Positions 22,490 to 32,899 of a stretch of DNA of 64,000 nucleotides are shown piece by piece. This stretch comes from Bacilli bacterium. GTDB taxonomy: Bacteria > Bacillota_I > Bacilli_A > RFN20 > CAG-826. The DNA is taken from assembly GCA_045226015.1 (NCBI GenBank), contig JBGVBY010000013.1:147922-211921 (forward strand). The letters run 5' to 3'. The notes beneath the pieces were generated by a model that had not been told where the DNA came from, did not search any database, and saw nothing but the letters and a program-made list of their open reading frames with translations. The stretch's first letter is position 1; each line of letters opens with the position of its first letter. The translations under genes were made by a program, and so were the position numbers.

Positions 22490-22566
<77 letters not shown>

Positions 22567-26276: not shown

Positions 26277-26730
26277 AATAAAATCTCCTTTCGATAGTTA
26301 GGCAAAGTGATGCTTTCAAAAGGAGATAAAAAGCCATCCAAATTGAAAACACCTTTTTGTAACTAACTGCTGATATCCCTATCAACCATAGTTACTGGTG
26401 TTTCATCCCACGTTGGATGGCCTCTGATTCAAATGCTAATAATTGTGTGGAGCGTGGACGATGATATCGTCTTCTGGGCGATGCTTTCCACAATGCAAGA
26501 TCCTAACACGTCCAATCTTGCAGTTTATAGTAGGGTGCCCTATCGTGTACCTGCGTATGGTCGACTTTGCTTATAGCTAGTTCATAGCGCCGATAGTCTG
26601 CTAATATATACACTTTTATTATAAGTTTTTGTTGTCTATGCATCAATGTAATTTATTTATAAATTATTAGGCAGTTACTAAAAACAAGAGTAATATGATA
26701 GGTAGTTATTTTTAAAAGAGGAAATGTATT

Positions 26731-27806: not shown

Positions 27807-30329
27807 ATGATCAAGAAATTTCTCGGTATCACAGCTTTATCTTTAGCGTTTTCAGTCGGATTAAACACTAATTCCATTAAAGAAGAAACTGCTAAACCAA
27901 TTAAAGATAACCATTACTCATTAATCACTGATGATGTTCAAATTAAATCAAGTGATTCGCAGTGGTCAGCTTTTACTGGAAGTTACGCTCACGTTAATGG
28001 AAGTAGCATTGTCTTTAGTGAAATAGCTACTGGTGCAGACGCTAAATACGACCAATTAACAAAGACTTTAACTTTATATAACGATGAATCTTATCCCCTT
28101 ATTGATGGAGTTAAGGCTAGTGGTGAACTCGATTTAAAGATTGAATTTACTTGTGATTACAACGAAGATCACATGATTTGTTTTGAGCTTGATTGTGATA
28201 GTGCAGAATTAACTTCTACCGATAAGCATTCAATTTCTGTTTCATATTTATTCTCTAAAGACTTAACGTTATCAGGAAATTTAACTACTGTTGTCAATTT
28301 CTTTAAAGATAGTAGTGTTGCTGACGCATTTTTTGATCAAAGCATTGATCCACCTCATAACACTATTTTTGGAGCAACAAATTTCAATCTTAAAGGTAAT
28401 GCATCTTTAGATGGAACAAACGTCTATAACATGAGTAGCGTTAAAGAGCTTTATAAACCAAGCGATTTCTCGCTCTTTGCTTTAGATAATATGTATATCA
28501 ACACGAACGGATTCTTTAATATTGGAATGGATGCTTCTTCAAAATTCCCTACTGATTTTAACTGCTTGTTAAAAGTTGAAACTTTACCTTCTATTTTAAA
28601 ATGTGATCAAGGCTTCGCTATGAGATGCACAAATGGTAGGATTACCAATCTTGACGAATTAAACTATGTATTTGGTCAGTATTTTAACAATCATTACTAT
28701 ACGAATTTTCAACCAAATTATAAAATATTAAGCACTGTTAAAGAATGCACTTTGGCACCTTTATTTCACGCTACAGACATTCAAGCCGATGAAATCGCTA
28801 TTTATAATGATTCCACCAAGAAAAACTTTACTAACTATGAATATAGTGGATTAAAATTTGAAGATGGTGTTGTTGTTTTTGAAAAAGGTTGCACCTACAA
28901 TAATTTGATTATTGTAGAATCAAAAGGTAATAGGCCAGTTGATCTTGTTATTAGATTTGAAGAAGGCTCTTATGGTTCTATCTCTAGCATTCATAACAAA
29001 TTATTAATTATCAATAGATACGGAAATATCACTTTAACTACCGGTGAAAAAGAAGCGCATGTTGATTTGGGTGCGGTTTGCTGTACAGGCATTCTCTTTA
29101 TTAACGGCAATCTCAGTGTTAGAGAAAGAGGAACTATAGACTACTCTACAGCGTCTTCTTTTCCGATGTACATAATGGATTCGTATGCATATATTAGTAC
29201 TCACGGACTAATTAATGGTGATATCCAAATTGTAATTGAAGAAAATGCTTCTTTATACGCTGTCGGATCAGCATATGATTTTGGATTTATGTCAACTACC
29301 TTTGAAGGTGGTAATGTAGCGATTATTCGTACTGATAGATTATTGGTTACAACAAATAAATCTGTTACTCTCGGTTCGGTAACTAAACCTGAGAGTAGTA
29401 TTAGATACATAACTGCTCTTTCTTTTAATAGAATTACTTCCCAATATTGCTTATTAAGAAATCAAAAGAGTATTGAAGGTGCTACATTCAAAATTTATAG
29501 ATACAAACATACCGGTGTTGCGTTCTCAAATCCTGGTAGTTTTGATGGCTTTTGTAACGAATCTAAGACAACATATACTCTTTATAATGATGAAGAGCAC
29601 GAAAACGTTGAAATTGCTGAATTTAATACAAATAGTGTAGATAACTGGATTAAAAACCGTGTAATAACATTTGCTCCTAATGGTGGATATGGCACTATGC
29701 CAGAAGTAAATGGTTTAGTGGCCTATCAATTCTACACACTTCCAGAATGTAGTTTCATTGCTCCACTTGGTAAATTGTTTAAAGGTTGGGCGTTCAAAGA
29801 TAAAGATCCAAATGTGATTAAACAACCTGGTGAATTAGTCCAAGTTATTAGTCTTTCTTTAGAGATTTATCCAGTTTGGGAAGATTCTCCGGTTCAACCG
29901 TTGTCTGGAACAGTAACAATTGCTGGTAATTTAAAAGTTGGACAAACATTAGTTGCTGTTGTTACAGGTTCAAATAACACTGGTATTCTTTCTTATCAAT
30001 GGAGAAGAAATGGCGAAGATATCATTGGTGCGACTAGCAGCACTTATGTCCCTACTGAAGAAGACGTCGGTTACACTTTAAGTGTAGTCGTTACTAGCTC
30101 TATTGAAACAGGATCAATCATTGGAAGCGCAACTGGTGTCATCTCAGAAGCAGATGCTCCAGTGGTTCCAGTCGCTGATAGCGGCTCTAAAGGACTTAGT
30201 GGCGGCGCTATCGCAGGAATTATTATCGCTTCTATCTTAGTGGTAGGTATTGGAGGAGCTGCTATCTACTGGTTTATTATTAAAAAGAAAACCTGGGCAG
30301 ACTTCGTTAACTTATTCAAAAAGAAATAA
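27807..30329 (+). CDS. Large surface protein with Listeria/Bacteroides-type (Flg_new) repeats and a C-terminal TM anchor
   Basis: Signal peptide, the ITFAPNGGYGTMPEV...FKGWAF repeat, a C-terminal hydrophobic helix (AGIIIASILVVGIGGAAIYWFII) and a KKK stop-transfer sequence. Confidence 0.55.
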   Translation: MIKKFLGITALSLAFSVGLNTNSIKEETAKPIKDNHYSLITDDVQIKSSDSQWSAFTGSYAHVNGSSIVFSEIATGADAKYDQLTKTLTLYNDESYPLIDGVKASGELDLKIEFTCDYNEDHMICFELDCDSAELTSTDKHSISVSYLFSKDLTLSGNLTTVVNFFKDSSVADAFFDQSIDPPHNTIFGATNFNLKGNASLDGTNVYNMSSVKELYKPSDFSLFALDNMYINTNGFFNIGMDASSKFPTDFNCLLKVETLPSILKCDQGFAMRCTNGRITNLDELNYVFGQYFNNHYYTNFQPNYKILSTVKECTLAPLFHATDIQADEIAIYNDSTKKNFTNYEYSGLKFEDGVVVFEKGCTYNNLIIVESKGNRPVDLVIRFEEGSYGSISSIHNKLLIINRYGNITLTTGEKEAHVDLGAVCCTGILFINGNLSVRERGTIDYSTASSFPMYIMDSYAYISTHGLINGDIQIVIEENASLYAVGSAYDFGFMSTTFEGGNVAIIRTDRLLVTTNKSVTLGSVTKPESSIRYITALSFNRITSQYCLLRNQKSIEGATFKIYRYKHTGVAFSNPGSFDGFCNESKTTYTLYNDEEHENVEIAEFNTNSVDNWIKNRVITFAPNGGYGTMPEVNGLVAYQFYTLPECSFIAPLGKLFKGWAFKDKDPNVIKQPGELVQVISLSLEIYPVWEDSPVQPLSGTVTIAGNLKVGQTLVAVVTGSNNTGILSYQWRRNGEDIIGATSSTYVPTEEDVGYTLSVVVTSSIETGSIIGSATGVISEADAPVVPVADSGSKGLSGGAIAGIIIASILVVGIGGAAIYWFIIKKKTWADFVNLFKKK

Positions 30330-30378: not shown

Positions 30379-30894
30379 ATGTTAAAAGAAATTGAAAATC
30401 GTCGTTCATGTCGTAACTTTGATAAGGATAGATATCCTAGTGATGAAGATATTAATAAAATCGTAAAAGCAGGATTACTCGCTCCAAGCGCGATTAATGG
30501 TCAAGACGGAGTGATAATCATCTTTAAAAACAAAGAAGCTAGAGATAAACTCATGCTTCTAAATAAGAAATACGCTCATTTCCCAGTAGACGATCCTTTC
30601 TATCGCGCGCCCGTGATATTATTAGTAATGAATAAGAAGACTCCGTTTGCTAAATACGATGGTTCTTTAATGATGGAAAACATGATGTTAGAAGCCACTC
30701 ACTTAGGAATCGCTAATATCTGGATTCATCGAGCAAAAGAATCAGTGGAAGATCCTGAATTCAAAGAATTAGTTAAGGACTTAGATATCAATATTGATGA
30801 ATATGAGGGTATTGGTAATTTGGCGATTGGTTATTCTTTAAACGATAATTATCCACCTAAAAAGATCAAAGAAAATCGAGTTTATAAAATTTAA
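30379..30894 (+). CDS. Nitroreductase-family protein
   Basis: RRSCRNF...LLAPSAINGQ N-terminal signature. Confidence 0.85.
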   Translation: MLKEIENRRSCRNFDKDRYPSDEDINKIVKAGLLAPSAINGQDGVIIIFKNKEARDKLMLLNKKYAHFPVDDPFYRAPVILLVMNKKTPFAKYDGSLMMENMMLEATHLGIANIWIHRAKESVEDPEFKELVKDLDINIDEYEGIGNLAIGYSLNDNYPPKKIKENRVYKI

Positions 30895-30966
30895 TATAAA
30901 AATATCAAAAAAATAATTTTACTTAGTAAAATTAAAAAAACATTTCAAAAAAAGTTAAAAAAGTTG

Positions 30967-30995
30967 TTGCGTTAATTTTTCAATAAGCGCATAAT
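30967..30995 (+). promoter_or_regulatory. Sigma70-like promoter for the downstream ORF-free locus
   Basis: TTGCGT (30967-30972), a 17-nt spacer, then CATAAT (30990-30995). Confidence 0.5.
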
Positions 30996-31000
30996 TTTAA

Positions 31001-32057
31001 ACATCCACACCGCGAAAGCGATATGGAAGAGAATTAACTACTGATAAGTAGTTAGTAGACTCAAGACTAGGTAAGACAGTCACCGCGAAACAGAAGTTGA
31101 TACAGCGGATTCTAAAAAAAAGGTTTAGATTAATGACTGCTCTAGCAAGAGATGCCTTAAAACATCTCAAGGCTAAGTCCTCCCCGACAAAGTGGAAGCT
31201 GAGTTAGAACTTAACAGCGTAAAACCACCGCCTGACAAGAACGAAGAGGACAGATATGAGGTAATAGCCATATCAACCGACCGAGTCGTGCTAAGATCAA
31301 CTCAAAACACGAAATAAGTAAGAGAATTGCAAGATATCGCTTACAAAAAGGTTCGAAGTTCAGCTAACGTAAGACAATCAACCCATTACACGACGTTGAT
31401 AGTAAGGTTCTAGAATTAAAACTTCTAGTTAATGATTGCAGTTAACTTATCATCACTCGTGATGATTAAACGGCCCACCTCCCTGTTACAGTGGTCACTG
31501 AGTTAGAGTTTAACAGTGTAGAAAATCCACCGCCGGACACGATCAAAGAGGTAAAAACAAGACCTATTAACTAAAAAGAATAGGTAAAGCCTAATCCACA
31601 TTATTCAACTCAAAGTGTGGAGATAGTAGAAGAGTTACAAACCTCCTAGCATCTTCTATGAAAAAACGGTCTAATGAACTTAAGACTAGGTAAACCAATC
31701 AGGTCCTTGAATTGAGTGGGGACCTCTGGAAATCAAAAGCTTCCAGTTAAATGATTGTTCTAGCAAAGAATTAGGAGAGATCCTAATTATCGGTACGTTC
31801 CTCCCTGATAGCCTGCTATCACTGGTCCCTACGTTAAAGTTTGATAGGGTAAATCCAGCACCGGACATGACGAAGAGGAAAACAGCCTTGACGCTAATAA
31901 CGAAAGGAAGCTGGCCATCGATACGCTAATCAATTCAAAACGTATCAAAATCAAGAAGCACCACCAGCCAAAAGGAACTTAACTTGGATATTGTTGCAGG
32001 GTGAAATCCCCTGCACAGTATAACGGTTAGCGGTAAAGAGTAAAGCCGCTTTTTTTC
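31001..32057 (+). ncRNA. Candidate large structured ncRNA of three tandem ~300-320-nt homologous units, not assigned to any known family
   Basis: ~1.06 kb with no credible ORF and higher GC than the surrounding sequence. Three homologous units each begin TTAATGA(C/T)TG at 31133, 31432 and 31751. Each has a hairpin at the same offset with a different sequence and a CCUCC/GAGGA helix whose flanking base co-varies. An upstream promoter and a downstream intrinsic terminator (32029..32057) flank it. Confidence 0.55.
32029..32057 (+). terminator. Intrinsic terminator for the candidate ncRNA
   Basis: AGCGG-taaagagtaaag-CCGCT followed by TTTTTTT. Confidence 0.6.
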
Positions 32058-32076
32058 TGATTTCAGAATAAAAAAT

Positions 32077-32099
32077 AAATCACTACTAAGTAGTGATTT
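32077..32099 (-). terminator. Terminator for the convergent SDR operon
   Basis: Perfect inverted repeat AAATCACTAC-TAA-GTAGTGATTT. A T-run follows on the minus strand. Confidence 0.6.
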
Positions 32100-32101
32100 A
32101 A

Positions 32102-32899
32102 TTATTTAATAAGTATTTGTTTGATAACCCAGTTTTGAAATCTTTTAGGCATGATATTAAGTAATCTTAATAATGGGTTACGATTTATTTTATAAATATA
32201 GTTAGGTTTCTTCTTTTTAAATACCTTAGCAATGATTTTAGCAATCTTACTAGGTGGTATCTTCTTAGCTTCTACTTTATCAACAATGTTTTTAAATCTA
32301 GTGGCGTTATAGGAATAATTAGTAGTGGATTCACAGAACTTATCAAGTTTAGTAGTGGAGACATTAAGTAAACCAGTATCCACTGCACCAGGACGAATAA
32401 CTACGACTTGTTTATCCAATAATTGAAGTTCCATTCTTAACGAATAAGCGTATTTTTCAATCGTAGTTTTTGTGATTCCGTAGATTCCCGTAAATGGAAG
32501 AGGATCTAAAGGAGCGAGCTCACTAGAAATGATGATGATTTTACCTTTTTTCTTCAAAGAAGAAACAAATGTCTTATTGATTCGATAAATAGAGAAGACA
32601 TTGATATTGAAGATACGAATAAAATCTTCTTCTTTCATCTCTATAAGAGAATTTAAATCATAAATTCCTGCAAGATGAATAATTGCGCTTAAACTAGCGA
32701 ATTCTTCCTTGTTATCGTTATAAATCTTTTCAATGGATTCGATATTAGTGAGATCAACTTGATGAAAAATGAAGTTTTTATCTTCTAAATCTGGTTTTTT
32801 AATATCAAGTCCAATAACTTGATGGCCCAAAGAAAGAAACTTTTTAAGAGTTTCTAACCCCATTCCTCCAGAAGCACCAGTGATGAGTACTTTTTCCAT
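32102..32899 (-). CDS. Short-chain dehydrogenase/reductase (SDR)
   Basis: TGASGGMG Rossmann motif near the N-terminus. Confidence 0.85.
   Translation of the reverse strand: MEKVLITGASGGMGLETLKKFLSLGHQVIGLDIKKPDLEDKNFIFHQVDLTNIESIEKIYNDNKEEFASLSAIIHLAGIYDLNSLIEMKEEDFIRIFNINVFSIYRINKTFVSSLKKKGKIIIISSELAPLDPLPFTGIYGITKTTIEKYAYSLRMELQLLDKQVVVIRPGAVDTGLLNVSTTKLDKFCESTTNYSYNATRFKNIVDKVEAKKIPPSKIAKIIAKVFKKKKPNYIYKINRNPLLRLLNIMPKRFQNWVIKQILIK

Follow-up and report, generated by a model that had tools for sequence, protein, structure and literature searches.

Positions 31003–32056 on the forward (+) strand of a 64,000-nucleotide (nt) stretch from a Bacilli bacterium (contig JBGVBY010000013.1 of assembly GCA_045226015.1; the whole stretch is hereafter the window) can be read, with moderate confidence, as the gene for a stand-alone, large, structured non-coding RNA that would act in trans as a multivalent binder or scaffold. 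Its body consists of three paralogous domains, units A, B and C, each of which contains one match to the orphan motif cow-rumen-1 (Table 1). A wider proposal, over which belief and doubt are evenly balanced, is that cow-rumen-1 represents the most conserved fragment of an undescribed class of modular RNAs of the form (AB)nC, 1.05 to ~2.2 kb in length, born of an ancient duplication of a ~300-nt domain with two pseudoknot-type contacts. Members of this class would be abundant stand-alone transcripts of the rumen, possibly forming a pseudo-symmetric assembly or a multivalent scaffold.

An initial annotation of the window had proposed that the three repeats are under selection for RNA structure rather than for a peptide. 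That proposal is strongly supported, with covariation in at least 11 helices per unit and no open reading frame (ORF) longer than in shuffled sequences. Three copies alone are weak evidence for such a claim; at the level of sequence comparison, it is the homologues that settle the conservation of structure. The structural picture first drawn is also incomplete: the core was already catalogued, the junction helix P2 and the second pseudoknot stem were missed, and the covariation described for the flanks of the outer helix fails in unit B.

Cow-rumen-1 and its arrays

Cow-rumen-1 (Rfam RF02946) is a candidate motif from the survey of Weinberg et al. (2017, Nucleic Acids Res 45:10811; PMC5737381). 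The 61-nt Rfam model, classed as a small RNA (sRNA), contains one hairpin and a 21-nt tail that is drawn unpaired, and the matches in all three units of the window span model positions 1–61. The hairpin (4 bp + 5 bp + 3 bp with an internal bulge; P8/P9 in the nomenclature used here) is kept by compensatory changes, with P8 100% and P9 94–98% paired and both-side changes at most P9 pairs. The conserved tail, ...CCGGACAnGAnCGAAGAGG, is present in all units, and it is predicted to be paired rather than single-stranded: GCCx' would pair with an upstream xGGy, and GAGG with an upstream CCUC. Because the model begins after CCUCCC, three features of the initial annotation fall outside it: the TTAATGA box, the variable hairpin and the 5' strand of the outer helix. 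The upstream CCUCCCUG and xGGy elements could be added to RF02946, together with annotation of the pseudoknot. A permissive Rfam scan of 30700–32300 gave only chance-level matches other than cow-rumen-1. The main text of PMC5737381 contains no discussion of the motif, and the literature sought under cow-rumen-1, RF02946 or large rumen RNAs comprised the 2017 paper and unrelated work. As far as checked, the core is known and the 1–2-kb modular, doubly pseudoknotted RNA around it is undescribed.

Homologues were sought in genomes with a 25-nt pattern taken from the tail, which identified 29 true loci in 24 species-level metagenome-assembled genomes (MAGs). The hosts are without exception uncultured rumen bacteria classed as Bacilli, Erysipelotrichaceae or Bacillales, and the animals concerned are cow, buffalo, goat and reindeer. 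Two other pattern matches (L008 and L013) were set aside as chance occurrences with no match to the model. A whole-unit profile search then delimited 95 units. The three ~300-nt units of the window share 68% identity per column over their full length, and nearly every untruncated genome array likewise has exactly three units. The units group by their position in the array and not by genome (26, 25 and 26 of 26), with identities of 0.68–0.75 within a type as against 0.54–0.60 between types. This position-wise clustering means that the triplication is old and that A, B and C are separate paralogues whose order is fixed.

The same order holds in metagenomes, where a scan returned 115 further contigs, all of them true matches (115/115). 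Unit orders among these were ABC (71), ABABC (15) and ABABABC (1), plus adjacent array pairs and fragments, and C was always last. The general form of the array is (AB)nC, with n = 1, 2 or 3. No match to the RNA was found in viral contigs, phage records or plasmid records. The RNA is confined to an uncultured rumen lineage of Bacilli, and it offers a natural case of domain duplication that bears on the evolution of large RNAs.

Several arrays depart from the simple arrangement. Two or even three arrays, in some cases adjacent, occur in certain genomes; MAG RUI564, for example, has three (one in locus L015 and two in L018). Two arrays per locus occur in L018 (ABC and ABABC, 1.5 kb apart) and in L017 (0.8 kb apart), and L110, L111 and L136 read ABCABC. 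A degenerate, AT-rich (33% GC) extra A-like unit lies ~200 nt upstream of a normal ABC array at L027:4092-4311 (-); its core has decayed to CUUUC/AAAGG, and it looks like a dying duplicate. Inverted partial units, giving the orders BbaABABC and ABCc, were seen in L063 (Ga0255061_10031794, 2364 nt) and L054, and they are probably chimeras such as transcriptome assembly produces.

Fold of the unit

The architecture of the unit was derived with RNAalifold, run on whole arrays and on each type, and the same fold plan emerged for A, B and C. Each unit has a 5' junction (P1–P4), a variable hairpin (P5), an H-type pseudoknot that includes P7 and P8/P9, and two 3' hairpins, P10 and P11, each with a conserved loop. 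In the junction, P1 (aCUAG/CUAGc) and P2 surround the hairpins P3 and P4. The box side of P2, AUGAUUG, pairs with an upstream CAAUCAU; among 30 type-A units, both partners vary at 6/7 pairs and pairing is kept in 99% of cells, and types B and C behave alike. The TTAATGA box from which the initial annotation measured its offsets is indeed present (31130–31136 and 31429–31435, with TTAAATGA at 31747–31754), but it is the 3' strand of this covarying helix rather than a sequence box.

The three perfect hairpins of unrelated sequence that had first drawn attention to the repeats can be read at the positions given for them: GAGATG/CATCTC at 31149–31154/31163–31168, ATCATCAC/GTGATGAT at 31449–31456/31459–31466 and ATTAGGA/TCCTAAT at 31770–31776/31781–31787. 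These hairpins are P5, and their complementarity is kept through compensatory changes in the homologues of other genomes. All 9 pairs change on both sides in 29 type-C orthologues, in a MAFFT alignment that was not structure-fitted, and covariation was found again in 94 units aligned by a covariance model. A CUAGC/GCUAG helix closing around P5 was considered and dropped, as it fits unit A only. Between CCUCCCU and the Rfam hairpin lies the small hairpin P7, the closing pair of which may be G-C, C-G, A-U or U-A. P7 is CUG-loop-CAG in most type-A units and has been lost in unit A of the window (CCCCGACAAAGUGG, 31183–31195).

The two pseudoknot stems, PK and P6, were counted from fixed sequence anchors and not from a structure-fitted alignment. 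In the covariance-model alignment (A3), P6 and PK were one column off register in some A and B units, which produced spurious double changes in CCUC, and the anchor counts were used instead. For PK, the conserved xGGy upstream of CCUC is complementary to (G/A)CCx' in the Rfam tail. The x-x' pair is formed in 85/88 genome units (CG54, AU16, GC14) and, across genomes and metagenomes, in 208/217 distinct A/B units (CG81/GC78/AU40/GU5/UA4), against a shuffled mean of 92. The y-z pair, which is C-G or U-G in A/B and U-A in C, is formed in 87/88 units. The order of the strands is PK-5', P6-5', [P7, P8/P9], PK-3', P6-3'; PK and P6 thus cross, which makes the element an H-type pseudoknot and the outer helix P6 one of its stems. 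Between PK-3' and P6-3' runs a linker, GACAnGAnCGAA, of fixed length: 12 nt in A/B and 11 nt in C. An exception is an insertion of 24 nt, AUGCUUACAGAAUAAAGCA(C/A)AAUUA, which interrupts this linker in the type-A units at L017:2165-2282 (-) and L023:511-629 (-); with metagenomes included, 8 such units (linker 36 nt) came to light.

Outer helices with a CCUC/GAGG core had been reported for all three units, and they are present in each, within 1–3 nt of where they had been placed. The helices ACCTC/GAGGT (31477–31481/31548–31552) and TTCCTC/GAGGAA (31798–31803/31875–31880) lie exactly as described; GTCCTC/GAGGAC in unit A pairs as described, with its 5' arm shifted by 1 nt to 31177–31182 (with 31246–31251). 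The core is invariant save for one UCUC/GAGA double change and some U-G wobbles, and because of this invariance it is uninformative for covariation. It is in the flanking pairs that covariation had been claimed, and the claim fares differently in each type. In type C it is strong: over 63 units, pair 1 is formed in 63/63 (UA43, CG19, AU1) and pair 2 in 62/63 (UA47, AU14, GC1), and the 29 type-C orthologues in the MAFFT alignment give UA23/AU5/GC1 and UA26/CG3 with no unpaired cell. In type A it is weaker, at 27/30 and 15/30, still above shuffles. In type B the counts of 12/29 and 7/29 are not above shuffles, and the A-U flank pair that had been cited for the second unit is therefore not conserved among its orthologues. 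Types A and B together (217 of 280 distinct units) give 142/217 and 74/217 against shuffled means of 92 and 54.

A second pseudoknot-type contact, K1, is predicted between two hairpin loops. Within each unit type, the loops of P3 and P11 have complementary sequences, and the switch from G-C to A-U between types is compensatory. Double changes also occur within type A (AGUUAUC/GAUAACU, AGUUGAC/GUCAACU and AGUUGAA/UUCAACU), where the MAFFT alignment gives GC27/AU3 and UA13/CG10/UG3/AU2 with 96.7% of cells paired. Over 446 distinct units, 81% of cells pair, as against 13–47% when the partner is slid. A loop–loop kiss between P3 and P11, predicted from this covariation, closes each unit. Pairing of the P9 apical GAGUU with AACUC of the P11 loop was also tried and was dropped for its absence from type C. 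The P3–P11 kiss covaries and accounts for the conserved P11 loop.

The fold as a whole was compared with shuffled and slid controls. The 3' domain of type C is 90.8% paired versus 78.4% in shuffles, with a score of 0.356 versus 0.117 (the alignment was not structure-fitted). Whole type-A units, whose alignment was likewise not structure-fitted, are 94.6% paired versus 86.8%, with 32/51 pairs changing on both sides and a score of 0.271 versus 0.132, slid controls scoring 0.03–0.07. The 94 units aligned by covariance model are 92.4% paired versus 72.1%. When single sequences were folded, as had been suggested at the outset, the minimum free energy (MFE) folds of units A and C contained both P5 and the outer helix, and that of unit B did not contain both; folding the full 1,051 nt in this way gave no useful information.

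Table 1. Features of the predicted RNA, in window positions. RF02946, Rfam cow-rumen-1; PK, pseudoknot stem; K1, kissing loop.
Feature	Position	Strand	Basis
Predicted non-coding RNA, ~1,054 nt (5' hairpins, units A, B and C, 3' extension, terminator)	31003..32056	+	Kept end to end in 21 genome arrays; bounds of RNA-only contigs; no conserved ORF
Promoter-like site (TTGCGT, 17-nt spacer, CATAAT)	30967..30995 (30967-30972; 30990-30995)	+	Sequence reading; conserved AUCCA after site
Unit A, first paralogous domain	31020..31312	+	nhmmer envelope; groups with first units of other arrays
Unit A P1	31065-31070/31142-31146	+	Fold of type-A units
Unit A P2 (3' part of TTAATGA box + CTGC)	31075-31082/31134-31140	+	Type-A covariation
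Unit A P3; P4	31083-31086/31105-31108; 31111-31116/31124-31129	+	Fold of type-A units
Unit A P5	31149..31168	+	Sequence; covariation
Unit A PK, AGGC/GCCU	31170-31173/31230-31233	+	Anchor counts; 3' strand within the "unpaired" Rfam tail
Unit A P6, GUCCUC/GAGGAC	31177-31182/31246-31251	+	Sequence; anchor counts
Unit A RF02946 match (P8/P9 + tail)	31189..31249	+	75.4 bits (gathering score 53.4)
Unit A K1, P3 loop AGUUGAU/P11 loop AUCAACU	31095-31101/31296-31302; P11 stem 31286-31290/31308-31312	+	Covariation
Unit B, second paralogous domain	31313..31623	+	nhmmer envelope; clustering
Unit B P2	31373-31380/31433-31439	+	Covariation, e.g. AU18/GC8 and AU16/GC9/UA2/CG1
Unit B P5	31449..31466	+	Sequence; covariation
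Unit B PK, CGGC/GCCG	31471-31474/31532-31535	+	Anchor counts; also in unit B MFE fold
Unit B P6, ACCUC/GAGGU	31477-31481/31548-31552	+	Only CCUC/GAGG core conserved in orthologues
Unit B RF02946 match	31488..31551	+	72.2 bits
Unit B K1, GUUGA/UCAAC	31395-31399/31605-31609; P11 stem 31596-31600/31616-31620	+	Invariant within type B
Unit C, terminal paralogous domain	31629..31943	+	nhmmer envelope; clustering; last in every (AB)nC array
Unit C P1; P2	31684-31689/31760-31764; 31694-31701/31752-31758	+	Covariation CG20/UA9 and CG22/UA6 (P2)
Unit C P5	31770..31787	+	9/9 pairs covary, 29 orthologues
Unit C PK, CGGUA/(C)ACCG	31791-31795/31859-31863	+	Invariant within type C; covaries between types
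Unit C P6, UUCCUC/GAGGAA	31798-31803/31875-31880	+	Orthologue and anchor counts
Unit C RF02946 match	31819..31878	+	75.4 bits
Unit C K1, AAUUGA/UCAAUU	31710-31715/31930-31935; P11 stem 31920-31925/31941-31946	+	G-C to A-U switch versus A, B
3' extension (CAAGAAGCACCACCAGCC...GGAACUUAACUUG, then hairpin GCAGGG...CCCUGC)	31944..32028	+	Conservation and alifold, 21 arrays
Intrinsic-terminator-like hairpin AGCGG...CCGCU + U7	32029..32056	+	Sequence reading; conserved in 21 arrays; RNA-only contigs stop inside or before hairpin

Probable transcript, locus and possible role

The ends of the RNA are marked by conserved signals and by the boundaries of a distinctive set of contigs. The TTG and the A2 and T6 of the -10 hexamer of the promoter-like site are conserved in an alignment of 21 arrays; the site scores under the threshold of a consensus promoter scan. 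The terminator-like hairpin was missed by a consensus terminator scan, its loop being too long. In particular sample series, 47 metagenome contigs hold only the RNA, at ~1.0 kb for ABC and ~1.6 kb for ABABC, whereas contigs of other sample series carry kilobases of flank. The 5' ends of 38/47 lie 21–38 nt before the start of the unit-A match, none of these 38 upstream of AUCCA, and no contig of the 47 runs past the terminator. Such boundaries suggest that the RNA-only contigs are assembled transcripts of a discrete, abundant RNA of 1.0–1.6 kb.

No ORF of more than 60 aa occurs between 30895 and 32101 of the window. No conserved ORF was found in the homologues either, where the longest + strand ORFs measure 27–67 aa (median 44 aa) at scattered positions, as against 52 +/- 16 aa in shuffles. 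The flanking genes of the window encode a nitroreductase-family protein (+ strand) and a short-chain dehydrogenase (SDR; - strand), and the downstream SDR gene is convergent with the RNA, the terminator separating the two. A conserved neighbour was sought in the flanks of homologous loci and none emerged, the biggest flanking family having 4 occurrences. A perfect 11-bp palindromic hairpin, TAAATCACTAC-TAA-GTAGTGATTTA, occupies 32076–32100, in the interval that separates the terminator of the RNA from the SDR stop codon; the T-runs that follow it on the - strand make it the probable terminator of the SDR gene.

The proposed mechanism begins with a single transcript that would run from its own promoter to its own terminator. 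Across the three paralogues the stems vary freely, and CCUCCCUG, the P9 internal loop, the pseudoknot stems and the linker stay constant, which argues for one repeated recognition site. The never-varying CCUCCCUG, the P9 internal loop and the fixed-length linker would gather around the pseudoknot to form this site, which would be displayed 3, 5 or 7 times per molecule. A repeated site of this kind favours a role in trans, where the RNA, as a multivalent binder or scaffold, would engage several copies of a single protein or small-ligand partner. This role is proposed with low confidence.

Other readings draw on parts of the same evidence. Unlikely, though worth weighing, is a polycistronic precursor cut into ~300-nt RNAs that each act alone. 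Every unit is self-closed by P1/P2, the pseudoknot and the P3–P11 kiss, the number of units varies (3, 5 or 7), and Rfam labels the core an sRNA. The fixed order, the constant terminal position of C with its unique 3' extension and the very short inter-unit linkers without a conserved processing signal all speak against cutting. So do the contigs resembling full-length 1.0- and 1.6-kb transcripts, although the collection apparently holds contigs of at least ~1 kb, in which a 300-nt species would be invisible. A similarly small likelihood attaches to a pseudo-symmetric RNA-only assembly, in which the three linked domains would pack together or with other molecules via kissing loops, much as in the homo-oligomers of ROOL, GOLLD and OLE. 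Kissing loops and large conserved loops occur in all units, the loops of A could also pair with those of B (GUUGA/UCAAC in both), and large ornate bacterial RNAs form RNA-only multimers via kissing loops and A-minor contacts (PMC12286853), but the argument is one of analogy, and the covariation suits an intra-unit kiss equally. Somewhat less probable again is the suggestion of the initial annotation that the CCUCC and GAGGA copies mimic Shine-Dalgarno (SD) and anti-SD sequences, titrating ribosomes, mRNA SD sites or an SD-binding protein. In 210/217 A/B units neither strand of CCUC/GAGG shows any variation, C units differ by wobble or terminal changes only, and there are 3–7 copies per RNA; moreover, every other helix covaries freely, so that the invariance of the P6 core suggests a sequence that is read and not merely paired. 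However, CCUC and GAGG pair together and flank covariation lengthens the helix in types A and C, with the consequence that neither element would be free in the folded RNA. In addition, type C is variable in the CC that follows CCUC (CCUCAA, CCUCAC), and conservation reaches far past the two motifs.

The remaining readings carry little weight. Tandem cis-regulatory, riboswitch-like elements that hide the SD of a downstream gene are very improbable. The GAGG in a pseudoknot stem does recall SD-sequestering riboswitches, and in the window and its closest relatives an AUG (31256–31258) follows the GAGGA of unit A by 5 nt. This AUG opens a two-codon ORF that is missing in most orthologues, however, and no ORF follows units B or C; the locus is closed by a terminator, the next gene of the window is on the opposite strand, and the downstream genes differ in every genome. 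The two-codon ORF itself (AUG AGG UAA, 31256–31264, +) is present in the closest relatives only (L007, L009, L016, L022 and L026) and absent from other type-A units, and because of this confinement it is probably fortuitous. Hardly credible at all is a DNA-level or protein-coding repeat without RNA structure, such as a satellite, a repeat protein or a CRISPR-like array. Three direct repeats of ~300 bp would fit it, but compensatory changes run throughout, there is no ORF, viral, phage and plasmid matches are absent, and the position-wise orthology, with 54–60% identity between types, is unlike that of homogenised repeats.

The reading of a stand-alone RNA that acts in trans has points against it as well. 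Expression is deduced from contig boundaries only, and RNA-only contigs could also arise where assemblies break at the borders of a conserved element. The role is reasoned from conservation and not from direct functional evidence, and no partner gene was found to co-occur with the RNA in the flanks of its loci. Shuffle controls ignore phylogeny, and the counts are not probabilities. Single-sequence folding is unremarkable (z = -1.8, +0.3 and -0.6 for units A, B and C) and was not used as evidence. For P6 of unit B, support comes from the invariant 4-bp core only, and the covariation of K1 fits an intramolecular and an intermolecular kiss alike.

Elsewhere in the window, a full-length match to Rfam RF02941, COG3943 RNA, lies at 26349–26456 (-) with 98.6 bits versus a gathering score of 71.8; this is an orphan motif of the same 2017 survey as cow-rumen-1 (PMC5737381). 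A tRNA gene (Rfam RF00005, 61.4 bits) occurs at 22490–22563 (+). An 840-aa ORF at 27807–30329 (+) has no Pfam match; its N terminus carries a hydrophobic segment and its C terminus a hydrophobic anchor with KKK after it, so that the product is probably a surface protein.

Comparison with known RNAs

Bacterial RNAs of great size and intricate fold are rare, and unusual roles have emerged for them time and again, examples being ribozymes, OLE and the RNA-only nanocages formed by ROOL and GOLLD. If the present reading is correct, the RNA would rank with the longest and most elaborately folded non-coding RNAs of bacteria, the ribosome aside. ROOL, which was also first found in cow rumen (PMC5737381), GOLLD and OLE resemble it in being large and independently transcribed, with multi-stem junctions, pseudoknots and kissing loops, and in having no associated protein gene (PMC5737381; PMC12286853). 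They differ in that internally repeated paralogous domains in variable number have not been described for them. The RNA here is, in addition, not beside tRNAs or prophage genes and is absent from viral and phage collections. ROOL, GOLLD, OLE, raiA and HEARO gave no Rfam match at gathering score across the window, nor any at E <= 10 in 30700–32300.

RNAs of the CsrB/RsmZ type sequester proteins by means of short hairpin modules with GGA exposed in their loops. A repeated module that presents a purine-rich, SD-like element many times per RNA is common to both systems, and a trans-acting sponge would be analogous. The modules here, however, are folded domains of 300 nt with one GAGG per unit, which is base-paired in P6, and the P5 loops are variable; no CsrB/RsmZ-type Rfam family matched in 30700–32300. 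Another point of comparison is offered by preQ1-II and SAM-II, H-type pseudoknot riboswitches that sequester the SD. In these, too, a 3' GAGG-type element pairs with an upstream CCUC and adjoins a highly conserved linker, whereas here no ORF follows any unit and there is neither an expression platform nor an Rfam match.

The closest relation is to cow-rumen-1 itself. A 61-nt orphan motif becomes a testable RNA of 1–2 kb, with defined ends, ~36 helices, six pseudoknot-type contacts and a variable number of domains. Its internal paralogues provide a built-in comparative set, in which covarying nucleotides would be structural and those invariant in all three types probably functional. The habitat is the same, every match lying in rumen MAGs or contigs. 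The difference is one of context: here the motif sits in a domain of ~300 nt with at least 11 helices and a kissing loop, and such domains are strung together as (AB)nC in an RNA of 1.05–2.2 kb.

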